A stretch of 63,931 nt of DNA, filler included, from Dirinaria sp. TL-2023a (Eukaryota): assembly GCA_051941275.1 (NCBI GenBank). It is 57 parts of 57 records of this genome, joined end to end, with 100 filler letters (N's around TTAATTAATTAA, not from the genome) between each part and the next. Parts side by side here need not be neighbours in the genome. Positions count along the whole stretch, not along the records: positions 40,702 to 41,720 come from JAVEBF010003084.1; 56 more parts are not named here. One strand, given 5' to 3'. Below are positions 15,944 through 62,827 of this stretch, one piece after another (the stretch's first letter is position 1; every line of letters starts with the position of its first letter). The notes under the pieces are model-generated. The model worked only from the letters and a program-made list of their open reading frames with translations. It ran no database searches and was not told the origin of the DNA. Made by a program: the position numbers and the translations under genes.

Positions 15944-16224
15944 TGAGAAACAAGAAGTTTATGACTATCAAGACTAATTACTGAGAAACTCAAGTTCTCG
16001 AAATGAAAATGATCTCTTTATTCTATACGATCTCGCAATCACTTGACAGTATTGCGAATATATTGTACTGAAGTCTACGCAGCGTTTATAGAGCGATGAC
16101 ATCAAATCATCTAGAAGTTTCCGAGTATCCGCTTGGGTCCTACTGACCTCAGAGAATCTTGGGAAAGCTTTCACCCATCTCACGTAATAAGTCACTAGGC
16201 CGTAAGGGTCAAAGTATCATGACA
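15944..16224. mobile_element. LTR, family B (partial, inverted relative to 7277-7627)
   Basis: Reverse complement nearly identical to 7277-7560. Confidence 0.88.
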
Positions 16225-16976: not shown

Positions 16977-17076
16977 NNNNNNNNNNNNNNNNNNNNNNNN
17001 NNNNNNNNNNNNNNNNNNNNTTAATTAATTAANNNNNNNNNNNNNNNNNNNNNNNNNNNNNNNNNNNNNNNNNNNN

Positions 17077-18108: not shown

Positions 18109-18208
18109 NNNNNNNNNNNNNNNNNNNNNNNNNNNNNNNNNNNNNNNNNNNNTTAATTAATTAANNNNNNNNNNNNNNNNNNNNNNNNNNNNNNNNNNNN
18201 NNNNNNNN

Positions 18209-19240
18209 GCGTGATAACGTAATGTCATTTTGCGTTTTCTTTTTGTCGACTAGCATTGCAGCACACGTTTTCTGCAACATGCTGTCTCGCGCTCTTGTTT
18301 CTGAGTCCTTCGTGTTTCTCGTCAAACGTTGTTTTTCATCCTCTTTGATCAACGTGCTTGAGATTTGAGAGTTGTTGACGCTAGAGACAGCATGTTTTGA
18401 GGTCGTGTTTTCGTTTGCTTGCTTGCTAGATAGACGTCTCTGACGTCGACGAGACTCAAATTCAGTTCACTCGTTTGTGTCTATATTTGCTAGTCCCATG
18501 AGGTATCGAAAGCACTTCAGTGTCTAGCAGGGCTAGAGAAAAGTGTCTAGATGTCTACCGAGTGCGTTGCTGACATTGTCATCTAGGTCAATGCATTGTT
18601 GATTTTTAAGCAATGCTTTGTTGATTTCAAAGCATTGATTTTCAAGCATTGAATTTCCAAGCAATGATTGTAAAGCAATGCTATCAAAGCAACTTGCGCA
18701 TTGTTATGAACCTGACCTGGAAGCCCTATTATAGGTCACGTGCTTGTGGTCACGTACTTGCGACTGGACCCTGAAGACCCCTATTACTAGGTGTTTACCC
18801 GACCGGGTCCCTACAAAACCAGGCACCCACCTCTGTATCTAGCCTTCTTCTTTTCTTCCTCATAGTTAGTGTCCTAGTCAAATAGTACCCACATGCTATG
18901 TTCGCTGTGCAGGCCCTGACACGCATATCGCATATCGTCAAGGCCTATCTCAATTCGATTAGCAGCATGAGCAGTGAGGTTTTGGCAGTTGACTTGACAG
19001 TGTGTATTTAGGTCATCATGGGCCTCATCTTGAGTTGATCATCAACATTGCTCCATCGCCTGCTTCAACATCAAATCGCACTCGATTTTCGCATCGCAAA
19101 GCGCTTTTTCACCCACCCACTCCAGATATCGGCCGCATAGGTAGAGGGAGTTGTTGACGCTAGAGGCAGCATGTTTTGAGGTCGTGTTTTCGTTTGCTTG
19201 CTTGCTAGATAGACGCCTCTGGCGCCGACGAGGCCCAAAT
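18209..19240 (+). mobile_element. Second copy of the Ngaro-like 3' end, with split direct repeats (from 18367 and from 19146)
   Basis: Reverse complement of ~5710-6455; ~95-bp repeat GAGTTGTTGACGCTAGAG..CAAAT present twice. Confidence 0.85.
18702..18921 (+). mobile_element. Solo LTR, family A, with TSD CGCAT
   Basis: TGTTA..TGACA; CGCAT at 18697-18701 and 18922-18926; empty site in the homologous copy near 5965. Confidence 0.92.
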
Positions 19241-19340: not shown

Positions 19341-19684
19341 ACGAAGAGAGTCGTTATTGCTATGACGTTTATGAACTCATTTACTGACTAGTTGACTTTT
19401 GAGAACAGAATCGCGAATGTACTACTCTGTTTTATGCAGTTGATTTTATTGATCCCGATTTGATTTTGAGCATGCTTATGCTTGCAAGTCAGAGTATTCT
19501 GTTAAATCTAGAGACAGCAAATTAACGATTCAAAATTATCTTCGAAAAATTCGAAATCTCTGAACTCGTTAATTTTGTCATAAATCTGACGAGACAGTAG
19601 CGAGCGTATATACTAATTTGCGTCGATGTAACGACGACGACAAATCAATCGAAATCGAAGCTTCGTCGATTTCACCTCATTCTA
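19341..19684 (+). mobile_element. Decayed Ty3/Gypsy protease region
   Basis: Nearly identical to 32850-33110, which leads into RT. Confidence 0.75.
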
Positions 19685-20096
19685 TGTAACAGTGATACCT
19701 GATATATTGGTATATATTGACCAATGCAGGCTAGCGCCGCTTGGCAGCCGGGGGTGCCCAGGGGCAATCCTTCGGGGTCTGAAGCATGGCTAGCGCCGCC
19801 TAGAAGTCAGCGTCGGAAGGTTGAATCTCGAGGCTAACTAGAAACCAGTGAGCGGTTAACGCTTATAGAGCATTGTGTCTACGAGCGCTCGTGACCCGTC
19901 AGCGCGGGGCTCGTCATGGTGAGGCAATGTTAACGCTCGCGGTTAAGTATAGGGGACCACCCACCCTTTCGGAGGGGGTTCTTAGTGATTAGTTCTAGCA
20001 GAAACTACAGTATCAGGTAGTCATATAATCTATTACACTGTCACGTCTTTTACACAAGTACTGCGTCGGCGGGTAACCGGCGCATACGACCTTACA
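19685..20096 (+). mobile_element. LTR, family C (412 bp), lightly mutated copy
   Basis: TGTAA..TTACA; same-length copies at 33321, 40918 and 55736. Confidence 0.9.
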
Positions 20097-22728: not shown

Positions 22729-23465
22729 CACTCACAAGGGGACTATACGAGATCTATATACTTATATAGGCGGCGCGTCAGCGCTGCGTCGACTCTTTTC
22801 TTGTTACGTGCAGTTTTCTCTATTCATAATACTAGAAAATCCTTCATGCGAGAACTTTATGAGTCTAAGAATCTGAAGAGAGAGCAGTCGTCTGAAACTG
22901 ACTGAGTAAATCAATGAATAAAATCATGCGTATCGTCGCTGTGACATCAGTGATATTATCGAACAGTTTTCTCACATTTGTGATGTTATTCGTTTTTCGT
23001 TGCATCTTTAGTCTCTTCTGTTTTCACGTAGAACACGTTAATAACACGTGTCTGACTGTCATGCGATTTTGTTTGCAGTCGCAAATCTCTGTATCATTTC
23101 AGAGACGAGTCGCTCGTTTAAAAATTGATTGAAATTTATTTTACTCGTTCTCAACTGTGTAAACAAAACGCTGTGTGATTTCGCTCGATCATCATGAAGT
23201 CGCATATGACGCTGAGTTATCGTAAACGTCAACGCGCGATAATGAGCTTCGTTGATGTCTTTTTTTCATTTTTTTCGTCATTTTGCGCGAGTTTATTCTT
23301 GAATCAGCGCTGCTCTGACAGTAGATTCACACGTCAATTAATCGAGCAGCGAATATTTGTGTGTCTCGTTGATTATTTTATTTGCCTCTTCCTTGTCTTT
23401 TATTTCTTTGTGATCGAGTATTCAGTGAAGTTCGAGTGAAGTTTTCTTTTCTCGTATCGTCTCGC
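22729..23465 (-). mobile_element. Decayed Tad1-like LINE ORF2 C-terminus (CCHC) and 3' UTR
   Basis: ICDCKQNRMTVRHVLLTC motif; same family as 46289-46731. Confidence 0.85.
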
Positions 23466-23755
23466 TGTTACGACCCTGATCGAACATCTAGGGTTAGTGG
23501 AAGATTAGCCTTTATCAGTAAACTCTGAGTGTGATTAGTACTGATCAAGAGAACTTGACACTGAGCGATGCTCAGTTGATCAATAATGATCAGTACACTG
23601 AGCAACTTGTCATGAACCTGACCTGGGAGCACCAAGGTGTGGTCACGTGCCTGCCTTGGAGGACCCTTAGGACCCTGGAGGACCCTGATATTTGTTTACC
23701 CGCATACCCGACCCCCTATTTGTTGCTTGCACCTTCTGTATCTATACTTCTTCTT
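23466..23755 (+). mobile_element. Nested LTR fragments (unknown LTR from 23466; family A from 23608)
   Basis: TGTTACGACCC start, then TGTCATGAACCTGACCTGG matching family A. Confidence 0.7.
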
Positions 23756-23855
23756 NNNNNNNNNNNNNNNNNNNNNNNNNNNNNNNNNNNNNNNNNNNNT
23801 TAATTAATTAANNNNNNNNNNNNNNNNNNNNNNNNNNNNNNNNNNNNNNNNNNNN

Positions 23856-24620
23856 CTCTTATATCAATACGTGATTTTGAGATTAATAATCACATATTCG
23901 ACGAATATATTATCGTCGATATATATTTTTCAAACAAAAATAAGAACGATAACTCTGTTATGATCAAAATCACTCGCGAAACGCATTTGATGAAAGATTT
24001 AAAAATTAAAATGTTTATTAACAATTACTGTATCGAGTCGAAAAAAATCGTTTTCAACGATGTTAAAAACATCACGTATATTGAGAACTGTGAGATCATC
24101 GTTGCTGCAAATATTAAAACGTCGCGCATTATAATGCAGATTTTAGTACATGTTCGAAAAATCGTTATCGTGTCATCGAATTCAAAAATCACGATATCAA
24201 TTTATTATATCACGATGTCAAACGATCGCGATTTTTTTATTCGAATCAGTGAATCAATTGAATTTGACGCTTTATGCACATTTGACGGATTTCGAAACTA
24301 AAAACATAATAATACGCAACGACGACGATTAAACGATATATTTATCACGTAACTGTCGTGTTAATCGCATGACGAAAATGAATTTCTCAAACGTTTTTCA
24401 AATCGATTCAGAAATTAATGATTTGACTATGAGATTTAGAGCATCTCAACATAAACTCTTCTGATTTAAAAAAACTATAACTGCATCTATCGCAGCAGTT
24501 ACGATTATCAGCGCGATTTTTGTAATCAATATATCGTAATTAATCTTAAATATCGATCTTTTGACGTCAATGCTTAACGTTTCGAACATGTCGTTATCAT
24601 GAAACGACTTCGCGCTCTTT
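23856..24620 (+). mobile_element. Heavily mutated Ty3/Gypsy protease region
   Basis: ISIRDFE..EYIIVDIYF..ITRETHLMKDLKIKMFI pattern of fungal gypsy pol; CC/GG almost absent. Confidence 0.6.
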
Positions 24621-25860
24621 TGATAGGGCTGCTGATTATGGATGATAAAAGAGTTAATTGTTATAACTACTGAATGATCATCTAATATACATGCGGTTGC
24701 CACGGCGACAAATAAGTCATCGTTTATGATGGTACTTTGACAAATATCAAAGTATCACAATCAATGATTCTAGCAATCGTAACAGATGCCCTCAAACACA
24801 AGAAAAAAGCATCTTTCTCGATGTTATTTTTTATTTCTCAGATTTTTTTTTTTTTTTTTTTTTTTTTAATTCTTACTCGATNNNNNNNNNNNNNNNNNNN
24901 NNNNNNNNNNNNNNNNNNNNNNNNNTTAATTAATTAANNNNNNNNNNNNNNNNNNNNNNNNNNNNNNNNNNNNNNNNNNNNCAGCGGAGGAAAGCCGTCA
25001 TCGAAACATCATACCTTATTCATTGGGCGAAGAAGAAGTCGAGAGAAGAGCACATCGCGAGAAAAGCAGCAGCTGAAAAGCACTCATCAGAGGAACCTCA
25101 TCACATATCAAACATACCCAACCGATTTCCTAGTCACATCCTCGAGTGCGTTGTTCGGAAAAGAAGCATGGAGTTATTAGGTTGATGGAAAACGGATCTT
25201 GCGAGGCGTTATGAAATGTTTTCAGAGTTTGAACGTATGTTTTGCTTTGCCCCGGTTTCTTACGCATCGAAACCGGTTCTTCATAGATAGCTGTCAATTC
25301 TTACAAAGACTTTTGTGAATCGAGATGTATCTTCAAATGTCATCAATTCTCCAAGTATGTATGCACTCGTGCGTGATAAACTTGCGTCACTCAACTCGTC
25401 ACTATCTTACCTTGGCAATGATTGAGGAACGAGCAGATCAGGGCTGATTGAGGGTTCTGAGGAGTCTGATAGCCCTGCATTAATTTGGGTCCTTCTGTCT
25501 CGTTTTCATCAGTCAATGCGTCTTCAGGTATCACCAAGTGCTCCAGATTTAGGGTGACAAAAGCTATCTTTTCGTATTTTTATGAAATTTTAAATTTGTA
25601 TGTTTAAGCACTAACGCTTTAACAGCGGTATAGTTCATCGCCAATTCGTTGTACCCTTTTGCTCGAAAATAGCATCCTGCCAGCCTAGAAGCATTGGATA
25701 AACCTGGGCATGAGGTATTTATGAATGGGTGGAATTGATAATGATCAGTGAAAACAATTGTGCGGTGCTGATTTAAGACTTCAAAAATAATTCTGGTCAC
25801 AAATTCCCTGATAGCTACAAGCACGGCAGCAATTGTAGAAACTTGGAGGGATTTTGGACC

Positions 25861-26427: not shown

Positions 26428-27231
26428 GAAAGCCGACTCCATGTGTTCTACTCCCCTCCTGCATGACCCAGAAGAGAGAAAGAAAAAAAAAAAAGGAGGG
26501 GGAGCAAGGAGCTGGGTAAGAAGGAGGGATCAGTGACTAGAGAGAGAAATAGGGACAATGGTCCCAATTCGTCAGCATGTGTAAATTAGCGGGCTTTGAG
26601 CTAGCGATTAGCGAGGGGGGCGTGTTGTTGTTGTTGTTGTTATTGTTGCTGTGAGCTTTTGTATCCTATCAAGGCTGCGAGTGAATACATAATAGCAGCA
26701 AGCATATTCAATTCGGTGGCTTTTGCAAAAAAAACCCATCCAGTGGCAAATGGAATTGAAAAAGATCCACCGAAAAGTAGGTTCACATCCTCATTGTAGA
26801 CCTCTTATTACCTTCTATTCATCTTATGTCTCCCTTATTCACTGTTGATCTAGCCCCTTTTTCTTTTGGCGAGGGAAAAAAGAAAAAAGAAAAACAATCC
26901 AATAAGACCCTTCCCTTTCTTTCCTTTCCCGTCTTTCCTTCCCCCTTTTCTTTCTCTTCTCTTCGCGGGAAGAAAAAACCCCCCAAACCAAAAAAAAAAA
27001 AGGCGTACACCCCTTCCCTCCAAACCATTCCCCTTCCTCCCACTCTAAGTATCTACAAGCTTCCCTCCCCCCTGCCCCAAAACAATAACAATAACATAAA
27101 CCGCTATCTTCTCCTCTTATATCCTCAAGATNNNNNNNNNNNNNNNNNNNNNNNNNNNNNNNNNNNNNNNNNNNNTTAATTAATTAANNNNNNNNNNNNN
27201 NNNNNNNNNNNNNNNNNNNNNNNNNNNNNNN

Positions 27232-28255
27232 GTAACAGTGAGGGATAAAATGTGTGAACAAACATTTCTCGAATTACGTACGTTACACGATCATAAAGTG
27301 CACATGAGAACGACTCATTCGAGAATTAATAAATTGATAATCTTTATTAAATTCACGTTACACATATGCTAAATTCAGGCAATGAAAGAATTTTATTCTC
27401 AGATTTCGTCGAAATATATTAAAAAAAACGTATATTAATATATGTCGTGTATAAATTGCGTTTATATTTGATAAAATTTTGAAAACATATGTTTTTCGAA
27501 ATGAATGACGCGATGCTCAGTATTATCAAAAATTAAAATACGTTTTTTCGCGATTATGCGTATGCTCAATTTATATCCGCATAATTTTTTTTCACACAAA
27601 TATCGTTTTGATAAAATTTTCGCAAATCAATGTGAGCGCATAACGTAAATTTAAAACAAAATGAGTATGAGTTCGATTTATGATTTTTAGAAAAAATAAT
27701 CTCGAATTCGTCGTCAAATATAAAATCAAATTTTATCGTAAATAAAATCGTAACAATTAATTTAAGTCGATAATTTATAATATTAAATGACTAACATATG
27801 TTAAACATAAATTTAATTTAAATCGTCAATATTTATATTTTGCAACTTAAAACAATAAACTCGAACGTCGTATGTGACGAACATATATTAAACATATATT
27901 TTTTCGAGTGATATAATTGTTAAATTTTTAGCATATATTGAGTATACGTTTGTTTAGTTTTTTTAATATCAAGATATGATGACATAATCTCGACATGTGT
28001 CGAGTTTTTAAATGCTTAACACATTAAACGCGCATTCGCGAATTAACGCGCTAAGAAATGTTAATTATTCGTGTTTGAGTTTTTTATTTTTATTTTTTTA
28101 AAATATTTTTTTGTTGTTGAGATCGTATTTAGCATACGTTGATTTTTTATCATTAATTCAATACAATTATTTGTAACTCAAATTAATGATAAATTGAGCA
28201 CATATTTAAACTCATTAATTTATTTAAAATTGAGCACATGCTCATCTTAAATTTT
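27232..28255. repeat. Extremely AT-rich hypermutated repeat relic
   Basis: CC/GG nearly absent, many surviving C/G lie in CpG; no ORF. Confidence 0.7.
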
Positions 28256-29920
28256 NNNNNNNNNNNNNNNNNNNNNNNNNNNNNNNNNNNNNNNNNNNNT
28301 TAATTAATTAANNNNNNNNNNNNNNNNNNNNNNNNNNNNNNNNNNNNNNNNNNNNCAGTCAAGGGAAGCAGTGATTCTCGGCGCTAGGAGAGAAAATCCA
28401 TAACATGGAATAAGGTGGTATCGAGGGTCGGTAGCGCATAAGTCGGGTAGGAATACCTACAGATACTCATGCAGCGTCACCAAGTCGCCGCCGCATTAGC
28501 GTGGTACCCTACATGTATCTTACTGTATGTACGTTGCCCTCCGCGGATTGCGGAAGAGATACCTTACCTACCTTAGGTGCGTGATTCGTTCACGCACCCG
28601 ATTTGGGACTAGCGTCCCAATTTTTCTGCAAACCGCGAGATTGTCTGCACTGCCATCCCCCTGCAGGGGCCCCGCAGCTGTGTCAGGGCAGCCTATTGAA
28701 CAGCGAGGCCATAAACCAGGTACCAGCCACCTAATATTGGCGATCTGCGATCTGCTCTCGTCCCTGATCCAGCGCACACCCGAGTGGTGGTTCCAGCGAC
28801 TACCTAACGACAGTTACGCCATATACTGCCATCATCTCGCGTGAGCATGGCAATTACTGTCCCGGCGCAGAAAGATTTCTATCAAAATTCACGGCATCAC
28901 TGGAAAGAGCCTGAGTGTATTCGCTTTCTATCGTTGTCTTATCAGTCATCGATACGCAGTAGAGCCGGGGAAAGTAAATGTCGAACAGCAAAGTTGCGCC
29001 AAAAGAGAGCCCACAGTTGGTGGGTGATTATTGATGTATATGTTCGTTTATACTGTCTGACAGTAAAGCGTACACCCAGAGGAAACCAAGAGCCTCCATG
29101 CATACCACGAGTCCACAGCACAAGGAGCCGGTAATGCCTTTTTCTTGCTGCCGAACTCAGCAAGCTTATATGCAAAGTCGATCGTCGATCGTAAGGAATC
29201 TACCTTGTTGCAGATTTCCCGGTCCCGGTTATCTCACTATCCTCACCATGCAACTTCCGAGCTGCCTTTACCCTCGTAACGTGGGAACATTAAATTTAAC
29301 ACTAAGGTAATATCGTTCGCCCGATATGTACGTTTACGCACGACGGGAGCCGTCTTAGCACCTGCCAAAGCTGCATGAGNNNNNNNNNNNNNNNNNNNNN
29401 NNNNNNNNNNNNNNNNNNNNNNNTTAATTAATTAANNNNNNNNNNNNNNNNNNNNNNNNNNNNNNNNNNNNNNNNNNNNGCTCAACTCCGCCGGAAATGT
29501 TTTCTGTTGAGCTACACATCAAAGGTAAATAAGAAATTGTGACTCATAGAGGTTTTGGAGGCAAGGCAGGGAAATGTATATATAAGTCTCTCCCTCTCTC
29601 TCATACGCAGTGTCTGTCTGTCTACGAAGCATAAATCTTTCCTTTCTCTTTCTTTTTCCTTTCCTTTTCTCTTGAAACCTTGAAAAATCTACTACCGTCC
29701 CAAAACCAAAACCCAAAAAAAAATTTTCTATCTACCGAACTGACTGACGACCTGTTCTCTACTGTTCATCTAAACCCGCGCGCATAAAAACCAAAAAAAA
29801 AAAAATTTTTTTTTGGAGGGCGGGACCCTTGAAGCTACATACATACATAACCTAAGGTATCTCCTTGGGTTAGTTAGGATCTTAACTAAGGTACTTAAGT
29901 TCGCTTGTGGCTTGGAAGAA

Positions 29921-32849: not shown

Positions 32850-33872
32850 TTGAGAACAAAATCGCGAATGTATTACTCTGTTTTATGCAGTTGATTTTGT
32901 CGATCTCGATTTGATTTTAAGCATGCTCATGCTTGCAAGTCAGAGTATTCTGTTAAATCTAGAGACAGCAAATTGACGATTCAAAATTATTTTTGAAAAA
33001 TTCGAAATCTCTGAACTCGTCAATTTTGTCATAGATCTGACGAGATAACAGCGAGTGTATGCATTGATTTGCGTCGATGTAACGACGACGACAAGTCAAT
33101 CAAAATCGAAACTTTCAATTCTTAAAAAGTTATTGAAGTTTCGAGATCAATTTGATAACGAGAAAATCGAGATTCTGTCTGAACAAGATCAGAAAGATCA
33201 TATCATTGATTTAATGAAGAGTCGAGAATTACTCTTTATGTCTTTATACAATCTTTCTCAGATCGAGCTGACTGAGTTGCGACGTTATCTAGAGAACGCT
33301 TTAAAAAAGAGCTGAATTCGTGTAACAGTGATACCTGATACATTGATATATATTGACCAATGCAGACTAGCGCCGCTTGGTAGTCGGGGGTGTTCAGAGG
33401 CAATCCTTCGGGGTCTGAAGCATGGCTAGCGCCGCCTAGAAGCCAGCGTCGAAAGATTGAATCCCGAGACTAACTAGAAGTCAGTGAGCGATTGACGCTT
33501 ATAGAGCATTGTGCCTACGAGCGCTCGTGATTCGTCAGCGCGGGGCTCGTCATGATGGGGCAATATTAACGCTCGCGGTTAAGTATAGAGGACCACCCAC
33601 CCTTTCGAAGGGGGTCCTTAGTGATTAGTTCTAGCAGGAACTACAGTATGAGGTAGCCATATAATCTATTACACTGCCACGTCTTTCACACAAGTACTGC
33701 GTCGGCGGGTAACCGACGCATACGATTTTACAATTCGTCATTTCGTTTCGTCAGCAGAAGCTTCGATTTTTTTTGTATTTAAAAAAGATGAAGAATTACG
33801 ATTATGTGTAGATTACAGAGAGCTAAACGCGATTACAATCAAAAATCGTCATTTTTTATCTCTTATAACGAA
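32850..33872 (+). mobile_element. Decayed Ty3/Gypsy protease-RT, interrupted by a solo LTR
   Basis: [51 protein letters not shown]. Confidence 0.92.
33321..33732 (+). mobile_element. Solo LTR, family C (412 bp), with TSD ATTCG
   Basis: ATTCG on both sides; removing the LTR and one TSD restores the RT frame. Confidence 0.93.
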
Positions 33873-38459: not shown

Positions 38460-39480
38460 GTCAACGTTGCAGAACAAGTTATTATTGACGAACGTAAATT
38501 CGTCGCGTAGAGAGCGCAACTCGACATAAATCGATGCACTTTCGATAACTGATGTTGAAACTAACGCTGTCGACAGACTTAATAATGAGTTATCGCAAAA
38601 CAAACAGAGATTATTTACTGAGTTGAGTTCTGTTTTTGATCTAGCTGAGGTGCAAGTCGTTATTTCGCGGAGGGTTATTAAAGACATGTCAGAGAGCGTT
38701 TACGAAGAGTCAGCGAGATCATTGAAGTTCTTAATTAAGAAGCTTCAAGAACAGAATAAGTGAGCAAAAGAATTTTGCGTCACAGATCAGTCGACTGATC
38801 ATCGAGATGACGATGATTCTGATTCGTCTCAGAATCGACGCAGACAAGTTAAGGCATGATCTCTAGATCAAAAGAGTCTAGTTAGACATGAAGATCGACT
38901 TTATGTTCTCGAGAATGAGGCTGTAAAAGAAGAACTTATTCGCAAGAATCATGATGATTCTTTGATCGATCACTTTGATGCAGAAAAAACTCTGAAACTA
39001 ATTCAGAGAAAATATTACTGACCCGTCTGCGGAGAGCAGATGAAAGAATATGTTCGATCATGTGATATTTGTCAACGCATCAAAGCATCGCGACATAGAT
39101 TATATGATGAGTTTAAGTCTTTGTCTGTTGTCACAAAATCATGAAAAGAATTAATCAGAGATTTTATAACGAGCTTGTCGACGAGCAAACGACGCAACGT
39201 TGTTTATAACTTCATATTAGTGATGATTGACAGATGTATCAAAATGACTAGATATTTATCTGTCAAAAAAACTATAGACGCCGCGCAACTAACGAAAATG
39301 TTTTTCGAAGAAATCGTTCTACGCTTTGACATATCAGATGACATAATGAGTGACAGAGAATCTGTATTTATTAGTGCTTTTTGATTCGCAATATGCTTTC
39401 ATGCGAAAATTAAACGTCGATTGAGCACTGCTTTTCATTCACAGACGAATGACTTAATCGAACGTCAAAATCAAGTTCTA
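38460..39480 (+). mobile_element. Decayed Ty3/Gypsy integrase (HHCC and core)
   Basis: NHDD..DHFDAEKT..KYY*..YVRSCDICQR..DFITSL..ILVMIDR..IMSDRESVFIS..STAFHSQTNDLIERQNQ. Confidence 0.93.
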
Positions 39481-39580
39481 NNNNNNNNNNNNNNNNNNNN
39501 NNNNNNNNNNNNNNNNNNNNNNNNTTAATTAATTAANNNNNNNNNNNNNNNNNNNNNNNNNNNNNNNNNNNNNNNNNNNN

Positions 39581-40016
39581 ATAGGCACCAAGTCCTTTGA
39601 CTTGGTTTAGTTAGTCTTTTGGCGCTGCCGGGACTTTTACCATTGGGAAACCTATCTAACCAAGGTTGGGTCTTTGACATTAAACCAAGTCAACACGGTC
39701 GCAAGGTTCTGAGTTCGATTCCCAGCCCGGACGTTTGAAGGGTTTTCGGGTTTTCGGCGAGGCTTTACGGCTGAGAGTTTACTAAACTCGGGGCGACTAC
39801 TTAACCGTTTCCACTAAGGCGAACCTCCTATCACACTCTGAGCGCTGAGCTTCGGGACGAAGCTCAGAGAGGGACCCGGATAGTGTTACGACCCTGGAAA
39901 ACAAAACCAAGTAGTAAGATAGGCACCAAGTCCTTTGACTTGGTTAGTTAGTCTTTTGGCGCTGCCGGGACTTTTACCATTGAGAAACCTATCTAACCAA
40001 GGTTGGGTCTTTGACA
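39581..40016 (+). mobile_element. TRIM-like miniature LTR element, copy 1 (5' LTR truncated, ends 39679; 204-bp internal; 3' LTR 39884-40016)
   Basis: Direct repeats TGTTACG..TTTGACA around a non-coding interior; PBS-position 13-mer complementary to the LTR; purine-rich tract before the 3' LTR. Confidence 0.88.
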
Positions 40017-40601
40017 CAGAAGACATCAAAATTGATAATGAAAATCTTGTTTGACGTTTTGATATCAATCGAAACGCTTTTGAAGTTCAGACCTCGAAGC
40101 AATTTGCAATGTCATTGCAAGCGCAGAATTATGTTTATGCTCTTTCAATTGTTGATATGACTCAGAAGAAATCTCGTGTTGATGTTATTCGAAATGATAG
40201 CGAAAACGCAACGTCTGCTCTCAGTACAGTGTTATTCGACTTCGCGAATGTATTTTCGAAGCAGAAGACTGAAAAATTATTCGAACACAAGACTACTGAT
40301 CATGTCATTGAAATTGAGAGTTCTTCGTCTCATGATCCTCTTTACAATCTGTCGATCAACGAGTTGACAGCGCTGAGAAGCTATTTAAACGACGAGTTGA
40401 CGAAAGAATGAATTCGACACTCTACAAGTTCAGCTGAGGCTTCAATTCTCTTTGTGTTTAAGAAGAATGATGAATTGCGTCTATGCGTGAACTATAAAGA
40501 TTTAAATAAAGTCATCATCAAAAATCGTCACTCTCTTTCTTTGATCACTGAAACTCTGAATCGTCTCTGCGAGTCTAAATGTTTTTCTAAAATTGATCTC
40601 A
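40017..40601 (+). mobile_element. Decayed Ty3/Gypsy RT start
   Basis: PLYNLSINELTALRSYL..FVFKKNDELRLCVNYKDLNKVIIKNRHSLSLI..FSKIDL. Confidence 0.92.
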
Positions 40602-40917
40602 NNNNNNNNNNNNNNNNNNNNNNNNNNNNNNNNNNNNNNNNNNNNTTAATTAATTAANNNNNNNNNNNNNNNNNNNNNNNNNNNNNNNNNNNNNNNNNNN
40701 NGATATGTTTACAAACATTATTCGAAATTATTTATTTGACAGATGTTTATTTTTGTCTTTATGAGTTTTTGAGATTCATCGACTGAAAGAGAGCGTCGTA
40801 TTAGAATGCGTCAGAGAACTTCTTTTCTTTCTCATTTCTACAGAGTTGAGAGATTTTTAACGAGCTTTAAATAAGTCGCAAATGCACTGAAAATCAGTGC
40901 TCAGAAGAGAGAACAAA

Positions 40918-41329
40918 TGTAACAGTGATATCTGATACATTGATATATACTGATCAATGCAGACTAGCGTCGCTTGACAGTCGAGAGTGTTCAGAGACAA
41001 TTCTTCGAGATCTGAAGCATGACTAGCGCCGTTTAGAAGTCAGCGTCGAAAGATTGAATCTCGAGACTAATTAGAAGTCAGTGAGCGATTGACGCTTATA
41101 GAGCATTGTGTCTACGAGCGCTCGTGACTCGTCAGCGCGGAGCTCGTCATGATAAAGTAATGTTAACGCTCGCGATTAAGTATAGAGGATCACTCATTCT
41201 TTCGAAGAGGGTCCTTAGTGATTAGTTCTAGCAGAAACTGCAGTATCAGGTAGTTATATAATCTATTACACTGCCACGTCTTTCACACAAGTACTGCGTC
41301 GGCGGGTAATCGACGCATACGACCTTACA
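40918..41329 (+). mobile_element. LTR, family C (412 bp), heavily mutated copy
   Basis: Colinear with 19685-20096; differs mostly by CC>TC and GG>GA. Confidence 0.9.
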
Positions 41330-41507
41330 TCTAGATGTGGTATAGTAATAGAGAGGTGACTAGAAAATCACTCTAAACGACAGTCATTAGATCGTTATCA
41401 GAGTCTAAAGAATTCTAATCATGAATAAATCGATTCATCTAATAATCTCATGCCATATTATAACAATCTGCCCACTATAAAAAGAAATAAGACGTCGATC
41501 TCGATGT

Positions 41508-41720
41508 TGTTACGAGCATGCACCTAGGTATACTACCTGGGGCAATATCTCTCATGGTTCTCAGGGGTAATACGCTAACCTGATCGGGGTACGCGACACC
41601 CGCACGCGTATATATCTGGGACCCCCATTGTATCTAGCTTCTCTTCTTCTTCTTTCCTTCCTTAGTGATAATATCTTAGTTAACTATACCTGCATTGACT
41701 TGCTCTGCACCGGTCCTAAC
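41508..41720. mobile_element. LTR, family D
   Basis: TGTTACG..CCTAAC at contig end; reverse-complement partial copy at 61615-61721. Confidence 0.75.
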
Positions 41721-42938: not shown

Positions 42939-43955
42939 TGAATCGAAGAAAGAAGACGAGTTTGAAGTCGAAAAAATTCTGAAGTAGCGAGGTCAGAAAT
43001 ATCTAGTTAAGTGAAGAGAGTGATCTATAGAAAACAACACGTGAGAATCAGCTAGAAATCTTTAGAACTGCGAAGAGAAACTTCGAAAGTTTCATCGAAA
43101 GCAGAAGAGTTCTGCAAAAACTCGTACATCGCTTGAGAGTTTCAAACAGAGAAAGATTTCGAAGACATCGTGAAAAGCTCTTGTTTCACTTGATATTCTT
43201 TTCACTCTATCTTCAAAATATTCTTGAATTCGATATCGCTCAGATCTTTCAGACGACGAAGTTAGTACTTTCGCTATTTTTTCTAACGAGCAAGCTTCAA
43301 ACGAGTTTTGAGAATTTTCTCATTCAATTTCTCAGCATTTTTTATCGTCTTGTTTATACTCTCATAATTCGAAGTTAAGTCGCACTTTCAATTCTTTCGA
43401 TAGCACTTCTCACACTTGAGATACTGACGATTGATCTTGCAAAGAACGTCAAAGAAGATACAGCATTGACAGAGACGCATCGTGAAGTACTCAGAGCGAT
43501 AGCGACGATCAGCAGTTTAATTACGACGATGAATTGTGAAATTGCGAAGAGACATATTGAAAGAAGAAGAGTTTTCGAGACGAAAATCTAAAAGAGAGAG
43601 AATAATGTTACGAGCCGATGCTACGCTAACTAAGAAATGAACAATATTCTTATAAGCGATAATCTAAGATATGAAAACTTACAGATTCAAGCAGAAGATT
43701 CTTCTTGACACTTGAACACATCGTCACGTAAGATTCAAGCAGTTCAAGCATCGACATTGCTTAAATATCTTGAATCGCTAGCGTCATAGAGTAGTATATA
43801 GAAACTCAATACGACGCTCTTTGTCACGAATTTACAACCCAACATCGTGTTAGAGATCTAGGGGTTTAACATCTATATCACTAGTGCCTATATATGAGAT
43901 CTTCAGATATCTATAGTATCTTTCTCCCTCATGTCTGGTATTCTCGTACATAGTC
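42939..43955 (+). mobile_element. Chromovirus 3' end: chromodomain, PPT (~43590-43605), 3' LTR from 43606, with a probable nested LTR from 43822
   Basis: EFEVEKILK*RGQKYLVK*RE*SIENNT*ESARNL; AAAAGAGAGAGAATAA directly before TGTTACG. Confidence 0.88.
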
Positions 43956-46288: not shown

Positions 46289-46731
46289 AATTTTTAAACG
46301 AGCGACTCGTCTCTGAAGTGATCACAGAGATCTGCGACTGCGAACAAGATCGCATGACAGTCAGACACGTGCTATTAACGTGTTCTACGTGAAGACAGAA
46401 AAGATTAAAAATGCAACGAAGAACGAATAACATCACAGATGTGAGAAAACTGCCCGATAACGTCATTGATGTCACAGCGACGATACGCATGATTTTATTC
46501 ACTGATTTACTCAATCAGTTTCAGACGACTGCTTTTTCTTTAGATTCTTAGACTCAAAGAGTCCTCGCATGAAGGATTTTCTAATATTATGAATAAAGAA
46601 AACTGTACGTAACAAAGAAAGAGTCGACGCAGCGCTGACGCGCCGCCGATATAAGTATATAGATCTCGCATAGGTCCCTTGAGAGTATTAAATCGAGTAA
46701 GAATTAAAAAAAAAAAAAAAAAAAAAAAAAA
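46289..46731 (+). mobile_element. Tad1-like LINE 3' end with poly(A) tail
   Basis: CDCEQDRMTVRHVLLTC, 3' UTR and an A-run ending at 46731; same family as 22729-23130. Confidence 0.9.
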
Positions 46732-46974: not shown

Positions 46975-47403
46975 CTGCTCTTTTTGCGAAAAATAATGTC
47001 TAAGAAATGATTGAGATTCTGAAACGCAGCAATCGTTTGATCAAAGACTTCTCAGTCATCGTTTCAACGATATTCACACTCGATCGATCTTTGAGTTGAA
47101 TAAACTTGAAAAAAAATAAGAAAGATCTTATCGAGATGCAGAACATTATATCTAGTTTGTTGAAAAATTTGATAAAGATGAGCATTTTTTGAAATTTCAC
47201 GTTTCTGTTACGAGTCTGACTCTCACTGTTGTTACCCGGGTCATTTTCTACAAGGTTTTTGTGTGTGGTGTTGAGTTTTGACCAGATCGGGACTAGCGCA
47301 TCCNNNNNNNNNNNNNNNNNNNNNNNNNNNNNNNNNNNNNNNNNNNNTTAATTAATTAANNNNNNNNNNNNNNNNNNNNNNNNNNNNNNNNNNNNNNNNN
47401 NNN

Positions 47404-48416
47404 CAAAATCAAGCATAATTTGAGATGTCGAATAGTCATGAGTTCGTGTGATTTTGATATTCATGATTACTACATGATCTCGAATCAACAATGATCATGA
47501 GTTAGTAGAATTTCTTTCTATGCAGAATTTGCTTATTGTTGAAAACATTTTCTGAATCGTTCTTTCGAGCAAATCTGTTGAAGCAGAGTGACTGACTGAG
47601 CTCGTAAAATGACTGACTTCGTGCTTCGTCATAACGACATTCATATCGTAATTGACGAAATGAGAATCGTTGTTCGTGTATAGACTTCTCGATCAATCAA
47701 AAATAGAAGCAATATGCTCTCGAAACATATCAATAATTTCGTAAATCTCATGCTTCGTGTATGATTTTGCTCAGATAAAGCGACTAAAGTAATCGACGAC
47801 AAACAATATATACTGTGCATCAGTAGCTGTACAGATCGATGTGATAAACTCAAGTCAGTTCATTTCTATCATATTCATCGAATCAAATGCTTGAACATTT
47901 AATGCTTCGTTTTTGATAGATTTGCGAAGTCTGCTTTGACATGCATGACATGAGCGACATCAGTTCTTCACGTCTTTAACTCGAGATGATCAGTAGACTC
48001 TGCTTATAAGATAATCGAGAGTCAAAACAGAAGCATAATGCTCATGATTCTCGTGTGCTGCTCTCAAATATCGATTGATTTCTTCTTCAAACAGACAAAT
48101 GCTGATAGCTTCTGTTGCTTCGCGATATAATAAATGCTTGCTTTCGAACGCTGTTTCTAGTCGATAATTTTTGAATAAATATCTAAAAGCCTTTCTTCGA
48201 TTTCGATTTACTCTTAGCTCATTCATTCTGATTTCATCTTCTTGCAAGTAATCGATTATTTGATGATATATAAATGATATGCTCAATTGTTTCATTCTGT
48301 TCGCAATCGATGACATGATGCTTCGAGAAACTGTTTGCTGTTGCACTTCGTCAATTTCTAAAGTCATGATCATTCTGTCTGCATCATGTTGCTTCGAAAT
48401 CAACTGCAAACGAGTT
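47404..48416 (-). mobile_element. Decayed Ty3/Gypsy integrase
   Basis: AAHENHEHYA..RVY*S..CRSCHAC..IDYFSRF..YCLSS..VELSQSLCFN. Confidence 0.8.
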
Positions 48417-48748: not shown

Positions 48749-49528
48749 TCATCCCAGTACCTGCCTTGCCACAGTGTCGCCATGGGAAGCGACATAAAAT
48801 CTCTGCTCTTTGTTATACTCGAACCATGAGAAGCCCACGTAATTAGGACAGCTTGATAATGCCTCGGAGCTCGACAGCTGCTTCAACCAGTACCTCTTGT
48901 CGTCGTCTGAACTGCTGCTGTATCCTGTCTCGCCAATCACAAAGGGCTTGTTGTACGCCTTAGCGAAAGTGTCATGGAAGCCCTTATATGCGTCCGAGAA
49001 GGATTCATGGCTTTTGGGGTAGATATCAATCCCGACAATATCAACAGTGTCCGCCCCTGGCCACCACTGAGTGAGCTGTGAGTCATCACCGCCGACATTG
49101 TTGGGGGACCAAAACATGGAGACTTTATCGTTGTCGGCAACGGCAGCAGCGACGGCCTTCCACGCGGTAATGAATTCGTCGGCTGAACCATGGTACAGCT
49201 TGCCCTGAGGGGTTGCGTACCAGTTCATTTCATGCCCAAAACGAAGATAGACTTCGACGCCTTGGTCTGTGAACTTCTTCATGACAGCTGCAACTTGTGA
49301 GGCAACGTTTGAATCGACCTGCGAAAATGGGATTTCTGGCATCACGGAAGCAATGAAGATAGCGTCACCGATGTCATCCACCGAGATCTGGGTGAGCTGC
49401 GAGCCATCCCAAGTGCTGCTAGTGATCTGCGCATACTGACCGAAGTAGCATCCAGGTTTCCCAAGGTTAGATGTGATCGTTGCAAAGTCGCTCGCAGCTT
49501 CAGGAAGCCAGCCAACGGCAATGCTGTT
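48749..49528 (-). CDS. GH26 family glycoside hydrolase (beta-mannanase-like), N-terminally truncated
   Basis: YLRFGHEMN, MFWSPN, WWPGADTVDIVGIDIY, KPFVIGETG and SWFEY motifs. Confidence 0.92.
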   Translation of the reverse strand, partial: NSIAVGWLPEAASDFATITSNLGKPGCYFGQYAQITSSTWDGSQLTQISVDDIGDAIFIASVMPEIPFSQVDSNVASQVAAVMKKFTDQGVEVYLRFGHEMNWYATPQGKLYHGSADEFITAWKAVAAAVADNDKVSMFWSPNNVGGDDSQLTQWWPGADTVDIVGIDIYPKSHESFSDAYKGFHDTFAKAYNKPFVIGETGYSSSSDDDKRYWLKQLSSSEALSSCPNYVGFSWFEYNKEQRFYVASHGDTVARQVLG

Positions 49529-49687
49529 NNNNNNNNNNNNNNNNNNNNNNNNNNNNNNNNNNNNNNNNNNNNTTAATTAATTAANNNNNNNNNNNNNNNN
49601 NNNNNNNNNNNNNNNNNNNNNNNNNNNNATTGAAAAAAAAATAATATCATGAATCAAATTTTTATGAGTTTAATCACATGATTAAAT

Positions 49688-50196
49688 TGTTACGATCCTG
49701 GAACATAAGTAATAAGATAGGCACCAAGTCTCCGACTTGGTTTAGTTAGTCTTTTGACGATGTCGGGACTTTTATCATTGGAAAACCTATCTAACCAAGA
49801 TTGAGTCTTTGACATTAAATCAAGTCAACACGATCGCAAGATTCTGAGTTCGAATTTCAGCTCGAACGCTTGAAGAGTTGTTTTTCGGCGAGGTCTGTCG
49901 ACTGAGAGTTTATCTAAACTCAGAGCGACTACTTGTTTTGATAAACGTATATTAATTTCTGAGCGTCATGAGTCACTCTGATTAGCTAGCATTCTCTACA
50001 GAGTCTTGAATCTTCTCACTTCTCTCAACGCTAGCTTCGAGACGAAACTAAGCCGAGGGATCGAGATAATGTTACGATCCTGGAACATAAGTAGTAAGAT
50101 AGACACCAAGTCTCCGACTTGGTTTAGTTAGTCTTTTGGCGGTGCCGGGACTTTTACCATTGGGAAACCTATCTAACCAAGGTTGGATCTTTGACA
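49688..50196 (+). mobile_element. TRIM-like miniature LTR element, complete copy (127-bp LTRs at 49688-49814 and 50070-50196; 255-bp internal)
   Basis: Two direct TG..CA repeats; interior homologous to copy 1 at both ends; no matching TSD. Confidence 0.9.
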
Positions 50197-52960: not shown

Positions 52961-53159
52961 AAACAACCCTTCAAGCGTCCGGGCGGAATCGAACTCAGAA
53001 CTTTGCGACCGGGTTGACTTGGTTTAATGTCAAAGACCCAACCTTGGTTAGATAGGTTTCCCAATGGTAAAAGTCCCGGCAGCGCCAAAAGACTAACTAA
53101 ACCAAGTCAAAGGACTTGGTGCCTATCTTACTACTTGGTTAGTTTCCAGGGTCGTAACA
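52961..53159 (-). mobile_element. TRIM copy 3 (5' LTR 53028-53159 plus start of the internal region)
   Basis: Reverse complement matches the LTR, TTAAACCAAGTCAA and GAGTTCGATTCC. Confidence 0.9.
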
Positions 53160-54184
53160 CAAATTATTTTCTCTCGAATTTCGTGACTGAAAGATTGTTA
53201 AACAGAGATGAACAATTCTACGATACTCATTTCGCTAACTTCACGACGAAAAAAAAACTACGAATTTTTAGAACAAATAAAAGACGAGTGATCAAATGAT
53301 ATTTTCGTGATTTCTGATATTATGTTATCAAGAATGAATACGCATTCGTGAGAAACGAGAGAGTACAAGCAGAGTTGAAGATCAAAGACAGTCAAGAGAA
53401 TAGAATAAAATGCGTGATACAAGATGACTCGAGTTCGTCACGCAAATCAAAATCACTGTTATCTCAATCACATTCGAGATCGCAATCTCTGTCGTTGAAA
53501 TTCTCTCTATCGCTTTTATCGAGATCGCAATCTCTGTCGTTGAAACTCTCTCTGTCGTCTTCATCGAGATCAAAGACTTCTACAACGAAGAAAAAAAGAG
53601 CAAGATATATCAAAATTTGAGAGTGATCAGATTTATCAGACATCGAGAAAAGAGCTGCATCTATCACAATACAATCAGAAAAAATGTCTACGCTTTCAAA
53701 TAAAAATGCGTCTAAATCGTCGACTGTGTCGTTTAACTTTACTTTTACGTCGTTTAAGACTCAGAAATCGCGAACATATGACTCGATGAATCTGAACTCG
53801 AATGAAAATATCTCGAATGATCAAGAATCATTCAAACATGCACTGAAGAATGAACAGCTCAGAGAGAGTCAGATATTCTCAACTTCACTTCAACATGAAT
53901 CAGATTTCGACGAGAAATCTCGCAAGCTCTCGATTTTCGAATCAACTCTGAAGAAGTTACTAGATGAAAANNNNNNNNNNNNNNNNNNNNNNNNNNNNNN
54001 NNNNNNNNNNNNNNTTAATTAATTAANNNNNNNNNNNNNNNNNNNNNNNNNNNNNNNNNNNNNNNNNNNNGGGGGGTGTAATCAGGAAGGGGGGGTGTGT
54101 GCTTAGCGGGCGCCTTCTTATTGATGACCTTAATAGCCGTAGCGAAAGCTCTATAATATTTCGAATGGGAGTCAATAACCAGTT

Positions 54185-55079
54185 GACAACAAGTTGCACA
54201 CTCGGCACAAAGTCCTTGATCAAAAACCTGATTCAGTACTAAGATATATTCGCTTTAGATCAGAACGAGATTTGCTTCGACGATTGTCGAGACGGCTGAA
54301 ACGAGATTTCAGCTGATTGACAACAAGTTACACACTCAGCATAAAGTACTGATCGAAAATCTCAAGTAGTACTAGTATCTTCGATTCATTTCAAAAGAGA
54401 ATTTTTCTCGATGAATGTCGAGAATGAAACGAGATATCAGCTGATTGACTGTTATGGACCAAATGGTGGGCCAAATATAATGATATTACCTATAAGGTAG
54501 ATAGTCAAAATAGCTAATAATAATGGTGATCCCCTGGGAAATCTGGGTGCAATCGCCTGCTAAATAGACCATACCTGCCCCAGGGGGTTCCGCCATAGGC
54601 TCGGAAGCATGTGAAACCGGCATTGTTGCGGGATGCGCCAAATGCATGGTGCAAAGCCATAAAAGTAAACACTGGGCCGGTGCCAAAAGATCATAGAACC
54701 TAGTACCAAAAATGCTAGTCCCAGAAGCATAGGAAGAAGCATGTGAAAATTCATAACATTGACAACAAGTTGCACACGCGGCACAAAGTACAGAATCAAG
54801 AAATCTCAATCAATACTAGTGTCTTCGATTCATTTCAAAAGAAGATTTTTCTCGACGAATGTCGAGAGTGAGACGAGATTTCAGCTGATTGACAACATGT
54901 TGCACTCTTAACATAAAGCACTTGATCAAAAATCTCAATCAGTACTAGAATATTCGCTTTAGATCAAAACGGGTTTTGCTCCGACGATTGTCGAGAGTGA
55001 AACGCGATATGAATTAGTTGACAACAAGTTGCACACTCGACACAAAATACTTGATCAAAAATCTCAATCAGTACTAGTA
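54185..55079 (+). repeat. Tandem array of ~130-bp units in two variants, split by a solo LTR
   Basis: GACAAC unit starts at 54185, 54319, 54447/54761, 54891 and 55020. Confidence 0.9.
54450..54758. mobile_element. Solo LTR (309 bp) with TSD TTGAC, not hypermutated
   Basis: TGTTATG..CATAACA; TTGAC at 54445-54449 and 54759-54763. Confidence 0.9.
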
Positions 55080-55179: not shown

Positions 55180-56147
55180 ATAGGGGTCTGGTTCATGACA
55201 GATCTAATTCTACATCTCTTACATCTAGTCGCAGAAATCAGCGAATTTCTGCGTTAAATTGTAGATTTTAATCTATTTGTTATGTTAATAAGGAGTTCCT
55301 TATAGAATTTACGGACTAGCTAGGTTATGTGATAATGTGCAATAGTATAGGAAACAAAGAGTCTATTACTATCAAGATTAATTACTGAGAAACTCAAATC
55401 TTCGAGATGAGAATGATCTCTTTTGTCATGAACCAGACCCCTATGAGCCTGATCACATAACTAGGTCACATGATTTCATAGACCCTGAACCCTGAAGTAG
55501 AGCCTCTGAATATCACATGTGTGTGAAAAGATCTATATCAAGTGTTTTGTTAGAGATGTTGTGTTTTTATCTAATCAGATTTAATGTTCTCGAATCGATG
55601 TTGTTTCGATCTCATATTTAAATCTATCTGTATTTAGATTTTTTTTCTTTTCTTTTTCATAGATAGTATTTTAGTTTATTTGTACTCATATGTCATTGAG
55701 CGCTGTGCAGACTCTGATATTACACTATTTATCACTGTAACAGTAATACCTGATACATTGGTATATATTGACCAATGCAGGCTAGCGCCGCTTGGCAGCC
55801 GAGGGTGCCCAGGGACAATCCTTCGGGGTCTGAAGCATGGCTAGCGCCGCCTAGGAGCCAGCGTCGGAAGATTGAATCCCGAGGCTAACTAGAAGTCAGT
55901 GAGCGGTTGACGCTTATAGAGCATTGTGTCTACGAGCGCTCGTGATCCGCCAGCGCGAGGCTCGTCATGGTGAGGCAATATTAACGCTCGCGATTAAGTA
56001 TAGAGAATCACTCACCCTTTCGAAGAGGGTCCTTAGTGATTAGTTCTAGCAGGAACTACAGTATCAGATAGTCATATAATCTATTACACTGTCACGTCTT
56101 TCACACAAGTACTGCGTGGACGGGTAATCGACGCATACGATCTTACA
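55180..56147. mobile_element. LTR cluster: family A end (55180-55200), family B partial (55278-55423), family A (55424-55719), family C (55736-56147, 412 bp)
   Basis: Each segment matches other copies in this window. Confidence 0.85.
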
Positions 56148-61119: not shown

Positions 61120-61503
61120 TTGATCGATTCTCGTTCTTTTCGAAACTGTTGCAACGTCTGCTGACAGTTTTCAAAATTTCTGAGTAATTCTCACGTGTTG
61201 TTTTCTATAAATCACTCTTTTCACTTAATCAAATATTTTTGATCTCTCTGTTTCAGTATTCTCTCGATCTCGAACTCGTCTTTCTCTTGCGATTCAAAAA
61301 AGAAGATTTTCTGTATAGACGTATTGAGGTCGATTGATTCTAACAATGACATATAAAATACATTATGAATTCGCGCATTCTTTGATAGATTTAGTTCAAA
61401 ATTTACTAATCTCTTGACTGTCTTTATTAAAAATGATTCGATTTTGACATGATCGAGTTTCTTGCTTGATTTCTTAGTTTTCAAATTCTTGATCAGTAGA
61501 TAG
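61120..61503 (-). mobile_element. Chromovirus integrase C-terminus (GPY/F region and chromodomain), decayed
   Basis: KKLDHVKIESFLI..IHNVFYMSLLE..EFEIERILKQRDQKYLIK*KE..NT*E. Confidence 0.9.
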
Positions 61504-61721
61504 TGTTACGATCCTGGAACATAAGTAGTAAGATAGGCATCAAGTTCTTTGACTTGATTTAGTTAGTCTTTTGGTCATGCCGGGACTTTTATCATTGAGA
61601 AATCTATCTAATCATGTTAGGACCGGTGCAGAGCAAGTCAATGCAGGTATAGTTAACTAAGATATTATCACTAAGGAAGGAAAGAAGAATAAAAGAAGCT
61701 AGATACAATGGGGGTCCCAGA
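61504..61721 (+). mobile_element. TRIM-family LTR (61504-61614) interrupted by a family-D LTR
   Basis: Matches the LTR starting at 50070; switches at 61615 to the reverse complement of the 41720 end. Confidence 0.85.
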
Positions 61722-62432: not shown

Positions 62433-62703
62433 CGTCAGTGATAATCCTCAGTAGCTCTTCGAATTCAAAAATAGTTTTAATTGATAGTATGATCGAGTTA
62501 CTCAATGTGATAAATGTTATCTGTTTACGAACAAATTATGACGTCGATTTTTTTTTATTTAATTGATTTAATATGCAAAAAATAAAAATTTAAGATTATT
62601 TAAAAAACTGATACAAATACTTGTAAATATTTACACGTAAAAATTAAATAGATTAATACGCGATTGAGTAGCTTTGTTACGATTTTAAATAAATAGTAAA
62701 AAA

Positions 62704-62827
62704 TGTTACGACCCTGAAAACAAAACCGAGTAGTAAGATAGGCACCAAGTCCCTTGACTTGGTTTAGTTAGTCTTTTGGCGCTGCCGGGACTTTTACCAT
62801 TGAGAAACCTATCTAACCAAGGTTGGG
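62704..62827 (+). mobile_element. TRIM-family LTR, truncated by contig end
   Basis: Nearly identical to the LTR starting at 39884. Confidence 0.9.

Follow-up and report, generated by a model that had tools for sequence, protein, structure and literature searches.

CpC-dominated, RIP-like hypermutation of retroelement copies in DNA of a probable lichen-forming fungus

Described systems of repeat mutation

RIP is a textbook case of fungal genome defence. In Neurospora it is premeiotic and depends on RID and/or DIM-2, DIM-5, and HP1, with one RID pathway and one DIM-2/heterochromatin pathway. To our knowledge, neither the catalysis of RIP nor the reason why it prefers CpA has been resolved. Going by the accessible text of the works concerned, CpA stands out in Neurospora RIP (bioRxiv 10.1101/344036), RIP-like defences share this preference in a survey of 1,239 fungal genomes (PMC12543289), and more than 98% of the Dim2-dependent mitotic C>T changes of Zymoseptoria tritici are found at CA (PMC8016269). 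In two Capnodiales species CpC and CpG also fall, with CpA still dominant, according to the part of PMC5737583 that is available to us. RIP-like hypermutation has also been described in Pucciniomycotina (Horns et al. 2012, PMC3318451, accessible sections).

Classical RIP has been reported in lichen-forming Lecanoromycetes, namely Cladonia rangiformis (PMC12542154) and Xanthoria (bioRxiv 10.1101/2025.11.25.690456), and also in Endocarpon (PMC3897900), which is a lichen fungus but belongs to a different class. RID and DIM-2 homologues are present in Cladonia (PMC12542154). As far as the available text of these reports goes, their evidence is either a drop in GC, which reaches about 16% in Cladonia, or extensive RIP-affected regions together with TpA-based indices. 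A dinucleotide spectrum is absent from this text in the reports on Cladonia, Xanthoria, and Endocarpon alike.

Mutations in a 412-bp LTR family

The window, by which we mean the whole stretch of 63,931 nucleotides that was analysed, contains four copies of a 412-bp LTR with TG...CA termini, all of them on the plus strand. The most mutated copy (40918–41329, +) sits amid Gypsy pol relics on both sides. It has 50 transitions, 24 C>T and 26 G>A, and 45 of its 68 CpC sites are changed. The least mutated copy (19685–20096, +) has 16 transitions (10 C>T, 6 G>A), and 26 are found in the copy at 55736–56147 (+; 10 C>T, 16 G>A). The fourth copy is a solo LTR (33321–33732, +) with 25 transitions (11 C>T, 14 G>A) and a perfect target-site duplication of 5 bp (ATTCG) on either side, at 33316–33320 and 33733–33737. 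Matching flanks are absent from the other three LTRs, which were checked singly and pairwise. The mutation load per copy thus spans a threefold range, and all four copies carry both C>T and G>A in similar numbers. We should also note that the window contains pairs of 44-N masks, 12 bases apart, about every 1.1 kb (112 places, the first at 1044–1087), which interrupt ORFs and alignments.

When the least and the most mutated copies are aligned, 50 of 413 positions differ. All the differences are transitions, with 0 transversions: 38 are found at CpC, 7 at CpA, 5 at CpT, and 0 at CpG. An earlier sequence-only reading of this DNA had listed seven changes (ACCT>ATCT, TTGGT>TTGAT, GACCA>GATCA, AGGC>AGAC, GCCG>GTCG, GGGGG>GAGAG, and ATCCT>ATTCT), all of which are present in this alignment. 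It had also claimed that both strands are altered within one copy, in agreement with the counts given above for the copy at 40918.

For site-normalised counts, C or G has been taken as ancestral at every transition difference between copies. With the four copies pooled, 97 of 272 CpC sites (36%) are changed to T, compared with 13 of 200 CpA (6.5%), 7 of 220 CpT (3.2%), and 0 of 232 CpG. Transitions amount to 117 and transversions to 2 in the 1,648 LTR cells of the four copies. Shared ancestry is not counted twice if each alignment column is considered only once: Changes are then found in 53 of 68 CpC columns, 10 of 50 CpA columns, 5 of 55 CpT columns, and 0 of 58 CpG columns. The difference between CpC columns (53/68) and all other columns (15/163) corresponds to a Fisher odds ratio of 35, with p = 8e-25. 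The main claim of the sequence-only reading, that CC>TC / GG>GA dominates and that CpG is spared, is borne out by these counts, and it holds when they are normalised for site numbers: The CpA and CpG rates are far below the CpC rate.

Changes which are found in a single copy may be polarised by the 3:1 majority, with no assumed direction. The direction is C>T or G>A in 31 of them and the reverse in 12. Ten of these 12 are located at TpC, as expected if a C>T change is common to the three other copies.

One public sequencing run provides scant additional data: three short contigs with 85–90% likeness to positions 40702–41720, which show 46 transitions and 2 transversions. Among the 40 places listed, 19 are new C>T/G>A sites (9 at CpC, 6 at CpA, 4 at CpT, 0 at CpG), too few to weigh. 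A search for the exact LTR pattern in public metagenome contigs gave 0 matches.

The choice of target is set by the 3' neighbour and not by the 5' neighbour. In the CC doublets of the LTR copies, the 5' C is changed in 62 of 132 cases and the 3' C in 3 of 132. In C runs longer than a doublet, the next-to-last C is the one most often changed. The changes alternate along these runs, as in GGGGG>GAGAG, because each change destroys the CpC context of the cytosine located 5' of it. The base on the 5' side has a small effect (ACC 0.33, CCC 0.30, GCC 0.42, TCC 0.41). A cytosine which follows a T and precedes a base other than C is rarely changed: 3 of 48 for TCA, 0 of 40 for TCG, and 0 of 24 for TCT.

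A preference concerning the base at +2 (C*CC 0.14 vs C*CD 0.41–0.52) was considered and rejected. The loss of context suffered by the 5' neighbour after each change is a simpler explanation.

The trinucleotide counts also bear on artefacts of assembly or sequencing and on a general mutation or damage bias on non-coding DNA, such as UV acting at dipyrimidines in a sun-exposed thallus. UV damage would agree with the light exposure of lichens and with C*pC being a dipyrimidine, but dipyrimidines as a class are not the target: TCA, TCG, and TCT show the low figures just given, and CpT is changed in 7 of 220 sites.

The strands of the changes are interleaved. In the copy at 40918 we have found 28 runs against 26 expected, with no strand clustering. 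Strand tracts, as in single-round Neurospora RIP, were looked for in the LTR copies and none were seen.

This arrangement is relevant to another possible cause, an AID/APOBEC-like single-strand cytidine deaminase which would act on retroelement cDNA or on transcribed TE DNA, before or during integration. APOBEC3G is known to produce C>T hypermutation at CC, where it changes the 3' C, on a single strand, so that GG becomes AG, and enzymes of the AID/APOBEC type read the 5' neighbour. All the mutated sequences identified in the window are retroelements (LTRs and Gypsy relics), as such a deaminase would have it; judging from the window alone, it is possible that the process is specific to retroelements. 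Nevertheless, the doublet counts are the opposite of those of APOBEC3G, the 5' neighbour has little effect while the 3' neighbour is decisive, and C>T and G>A are equal and interleaved within copies, whereas cDNA editing marks a single strand. Besides, the solo LTR is mutated differently from its sister copies in spite of its intact target-site duplication, so that the changes post-date integration. We consider a deaminase of this kind very improbable. The distinction made by the sequence-only reading between this pattern and Neurospora RIP (CpA), methyl-deamination decay at CpG, and APOBEC3G agrees with both the context and the strand evidence.

Depleted blocks, Gypsy relics, and host genes

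The non-LTR repeat pairs of the window give the following counts: 241 of 1158 CpC (21%), 140 of 1650 CpT, 101 of 1508 CpA, and 53 of 1012 CpG. A second repeat family has a member at 39581–40016 (+), with inter-member differences which are again mainly at CpC, and the repeat comparison places further members at 49684–50196, 52961–53160, 61495–61622, and 62695–62827. Some pairs do not show CpC dominance, such as 19399–19663 / 32850–33114 (CpC 1/4, CpA 10/72, CpT 8/62, CpG 4/72) and 22730–23126 / 46289–46686 (CpT 19/120, CpC 5/20). This would correspond to saturation, with hardly any CpC remaining.

The window also contains a tandem array at 54183–55079, with a period of about 130 bp. Many transversions and indels are found between its copies (for example, 26 transversions in 258 bp), in contrast with the repeat families which only have transitions.

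We have detected 28 CC/GG-depleted blocks, which amount to 23,000 of the 63,931 bp (about 36% of the window). Their CC+GG observed/expected ratio is 0.00–0.42 and their GC content 0.24–0.46. Outside the blocks, in 38 kb which comprise intergenic DNA as well, the corresponding ratio is 1.03, and the boundaries are sharp at a 100-bp scale; both features argue against a general damage bias. Cytosine density in the blocks, relative to the rest, is only 13% for CpC, while it is 98% for CpA, 106% for CpG, and 89% for CpT. TC/GA and CpG are elevated inside the blocks, where the CpG odds ratio is 1.06–3.21; TpA is not elevated.

Deamination decay of 5mCpG was considered as well and may be rejected: None of the 232 CpG sites of the LTRs is changed and the odds ratios of the blocks show no depletion.

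The block at 53151–54050 has 0 CC/GG where 51 are expected, with boundaries that are again sharp at 100 bp. In the CC/GG scan, the longest stretch free of CC/GG is found at 53151–54070 (unstranded), with 920 bp which include two 44-N masks. Another one, of 887 bp (47303–48189, unstranded), adjoins an intact host gene of the GH26/GH5 type (48749–49576, -), which serves as a control with normal CC/GG. Host ORFs, 5,177 bp altogether, have a CC+GG observed/expected ratio of 0.96. Judged by composition only, the bias does not appear outside the blocks; the earlier reading had named the same bias in single-copy DNA as evidence against its inference.

The product of this host gene has its best named relative in Heterodermia speciosa (Lecanoromycetes), with 80% identity. 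Two Pfam families typical of Pezizomycotina, 2EXR and DUF7730, are also found in the window, whose fungus is probably a lichen-forming Lecanoromycete. A fragment of the GH13 amylase type at 63086–63910 (-) has its best named matches in Dothideomycetes, with 68% to Vermiconidia calcicola. The differing class affinity of the two host genes may correspond to gene transfer or to patchy gene loss.

Classical cut-offs for RIP are a TpA/ApT ratio above about 0.89–1.15 and a composite index above 0. In the blocks TpA/ApT is 0.50–0.91, and all 28 have a negative composite index. The stringent RIPper thresholds, as quoted in the accessible text of PMC11412873 and PMC7882544, are passed by none of the 28 blocks and by none of the 126 1-kb windows. 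The expectation that indices based on TpA would under-call this pattern has therefore proved right. On the other hand, the RIPCAL index (CpC+GpG)/(TpC+GpA), defined in the available part of PMC2621366, is 0.087 in the blocks vs 0.81 in the rest of the window.

For 18 of the 28 blocks the window contains a repeat partner, and for 20 either such a partner or a TE protein match. The other eight have neither of them, in a search limited to the window.

The most AT-rich block (27151–28350, unstranded, GC 0.24) has almost no CpC and is also depleted in CpT, while CpA and CpG are retained, with a CpG odds ratio of 3.2. The second one in this respect (23751–24700, GC 0.31) has likewise lost CpT and CpC and retained CpA and CpG. 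These two blocks have 42 and 59 CpT cytosines per kb vs 131 in the rest. This suggests an order of targets: CpC first, CpT second, and finally CpA and CpG, at saturation.

Another possible process is methylation-driven deamination in heterochromatin, in which a DIM-2-type methyltransferase with a preference for CpC and then CpT would act on TE chromatin with no homology trigger, the methylated or enzyme-bound cytosines becoming T in ordinary mitotic growth. The growth of lichen fungi is slow and prolonged, which would favour this process, and so would the eight blocks with no visible partner in the window. There is a precedent in Z. tritici, where a functional dim2 raises mitotic C>T in methylated TE regions according to the accessible text of PMC8016269; the same source gives CT as the preference of N. 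crassa DIM-2, and in the most AT-rich blocks described here CpT comes second as a target. Nevertheless, a threefold spread of loads among sister copies (16 to 50), with almost no transversions, looks like bursts, and the least affected context is CpG (0/232), where maintained methylation is usually located. Besides, this process overlaps with RIP itself: DIM-2 drives one of the two Neurospora RIP pathways, as stated in the available portions of PMC12543289 and bioRxiv 10.1101/344036. Methylation acting by itself appears to us unlikely as the cause.

Several relics of Gypsy elements are found in the window. One of them (11405–12439, +) corresponds to RT-RNase H of a Ty3/Gypsy element, with one frame which is open save for stops. 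Its translation through these stops (written as X) was used as a query and gave 25 intact Ty3/Gypsy relatives; tblastn with these relatives gave seven relic segments. A pol relic upstream of the LTR at 40918 (38866–40600, +) consists of two segments, 38866–39480 and 40073–40600, and a C-terminal pol relic is located at 42940–43131 (+). On the minus strand, tblastn places a pol relic at 6960–7358, within a repeat (5710–7557) whose inverted partner is at 15944–19181, and both Pfam and tblastn place an integrase-end relic with an SH3_Tf2-1 domain at 61128–61502. The Pfam scan covered 150 of the 157 stop-to-stop ORFs of at least 70 aa, and its two TE matches, RVT_1 and SH3_Tf2-1, are both below Pfam's own cut-offs.

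Amid these heavily mutated relics we have also found an intact Retrotrans_gag ORF (8592–9080, +), which is unmutated and has a CC/GG odds ratio of about 1.0. A 375-aa ORF rich in Pro, Gln, and Gly (17029–18156, +), with no Pfam match, is also unmutated and has a similar odds ratio (about 1.0). These two ORFs may be single-copy or recent.

The intact relatives allow a codon polarity test, limited to positions with the same residue in at least 70% of the aligned relatives. Nine positions are Pro in the relatives: None of the relic codons is CCN, while five are TCN, three TTN, and one other. In the four Gly positions we find no GGN, three GAR, and one AGA. Trp is the residue in 11 positions, which have become TGA in nine cases and other codons in two, with TAG and TGG both absent. 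The remaining residues are better conserved: CAR is retained in 10 of 18 Gln positions, CAY in 13 of 16 His positions, and CGN in 14 of 29 Arg positions, with no case of CGA>TGA. The changes Pro>Ser, Gly>Glu/Asp, and Trp>TGA, which the sequence-only reading had noticed in TE proteins, are thus recovered, and Pro>Leu is seen as well. This comparison fixes the C>T direction independently of the repeat alignments.

Other assemblies and probable cause

A profile of intact Gypsy relatives allowed us to collect 80 Gypsy loci from public metagenome contigs. Three of these loci, L010, L013, and L020, belong to three different assemblies and have the same CC signature as the window. Their CC/GG odds ratios are 0.22–0.35, their composite indices are negative, and their Trp positions contain TGA in 10, 7, and 6 cases and TAG in 1, 2, and 0 cases, respectively. 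They are 77–84% alike mutually and 66–74% alike to the window. The contrast between contexts is weaker in this set (CpC 0.50, CpT 0.27, CpA 0.26, CpG 0.19), and 173 columns have transversions: To judge from these sequences, the copies are older than those of the window.

Another three loci, L008, L019, and L021, show classical CpA RIP, with CA/TG 0.32–0.59 and TA 1.3–1.5. Their Trp positions contain TAG in 8, 17, and 12 cases and TGA in none. In a three-way alignment of these loci, CpA is changed in 0.44 of the cells vs 0.047 for CpC. The survey of Trp codons in the 80 loci indicates that TGG is retained in 71, while the TGA type is found in four (weak in L050) and the TAG type in five (based on few positions in L045 and L064). 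The presence of the CC signature in contigs of three other assemblies, together with sister assemblies which carry classical RIP, argues against damage or an artefact. This is the least credible of the explanations we have considered, and we give it practically no weight.

A strong CpG depletion (odds ratio 0.0–0.37), with normal CC and CA, is found in L023, L064, L053, and L054. These loci represent a third kind of signature, that of CpG methylation decay, which may be separated by means of the same dinucleotide table.

The presence of almost only transitions, on both strands, in sharp blocks, with apparently spared genes, uneven loads, and a 3' rule, corresponds to the behaviour of RIP, and not to cDNA editing, CpG decay, or UV. 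Change in 36% of the CpC cells with only 2 transversions, together with the threefold spread in load, fits hypermutation better than clock-like decay. In our opinion, a genome defence of the RIP type is the most likely cause, and a probable one: a hypermutation targeted to C*pC in double-stranded repeated DNA. Repeats (LTRs, Gypsy bodies, and others) would undergo C>T hypermutation in bursts, and neighbouring genes would be spared. The target would be a cytosine with another C next to it on the 3' side, giving C*pC>TpC, or GpG>GpA on the opposite strand. CpT would be a weak second target, CpA would rarely be changed, and CpG would be spared. Some observations weigh against this explanation: the unmutated gag ORF, the eight blocks with neither partner nor TE match, the repeat pairs in which CpC does not dominate, the retroelement nature of all the identified targets, and the weaker contrast in L010, L013, and L020.

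Enzymes similar to C5-cytosine methyltransferases typically choose their target by the 3' neighbour, and RID and DIM-2 are of this kind; for this reason we would propose an enzyme of the RID or DIM-2 type in which the neighbour preference is altered. The accessible text of bioRxiv 10.1101/344036 also argues that a choice by the 3' neighbour points to C5-methyltransferase-like enzymes. Homology would be the trigger of the process, which might take place before meiosis or during mitosis. A broader suggestion, which we make tentatively and hold to be a little less than an even matter, is that some lichen-forming fungi have either a RIP machinery with a changed target or some other enzyme, a cytosine methyltransferase or deaminase of double-stranded DNA which would read C*pC, while sister lineages keep the CpA form.

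Some practical consequences may be pointed out. RIP surveys based on TpA/ApT, composite indices, or AT-rich k-mers under-call this signature, as seen in the window, where about 36% of the DNA is affected and 0 of 126 windows are detected. If our reading is true, kingdom-wide surveys of RIP which use TpA or AT-rich k-mers would miss whole lineages with an active defence, and the annotation of TE relics, pseudogenes, and GC landscapes in the genomes of lichen fungi would change accordingly. The signature is readily detected by the RIPCAL index (CpC+GpG)/(TpC+GpA) and by counting Trp>TGA vs Trp>TAG. A CpC lineage would also give a comparative handle on the specificity of RIP, by means of RID and DIM-2 from genomes of the CpC and CpA types. 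The assemblies of the TGA and TAG types would then be a natural experiment on the residues of RID or DIM-2 which set the RIP target.

In the literature we have searched, as far as its available text goes and with subscription journals and supplements outside its scope, we have not found a RIP in which CpC is dominant. The pattern described here is a new form of RIP-like hypermutation, which may be compared with the known systems as follows.

It is similar to the RIP of Neurospora and other Pezizomycotina in several features: Changes are almost exclusively C:G>T:A, they affect both strands, they occur in sharp blocks of repeats and TE relics with genes apparently spared, loads are uneven as if produced by bursts, and the 3' neighbour decides. 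It differs in its target, since CpC is the least favoured step in Neurospora, and in that CpA and CpG are spared. Unlike Neurospora RIP, it does not raise TpA, the TpA/ApT and composite indices fail, and Trp codons become TGA instead of TAG.

The Dim2-dependent mutation of Z. tritici also consists of C>T changes which are limited to TE regions, depend on the 3' neighbour, and do not have CpG as the mutated site. It is tied to a C5-methyltransferase, while here the link to an enzyme is one that we infer, and CpA, its target, is nearly untouched in our case. APOBEC3G editing is similar in that C>T changes occur within CC doublets of retroelements. Nevertheless, APOBEC3G takes the 3' C on one strand, and here the 5' C is affected on both strands equally. 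The hypermutation of Pucciniomycotina has in common a lineage-specific shift of context in TE copies. In these basidiomycetes the target is reportedly TpCpG, a trinucleotide which contains CpG, unlike our case, where CpG is spared. Finally, TE blocks eroded by C>T are shared with the RIP of other lichen fungi, but the blocks described here differ from those in the reports on these fungi, since they keep a GC content of 0.24–0.46 and fail the TpA indices.
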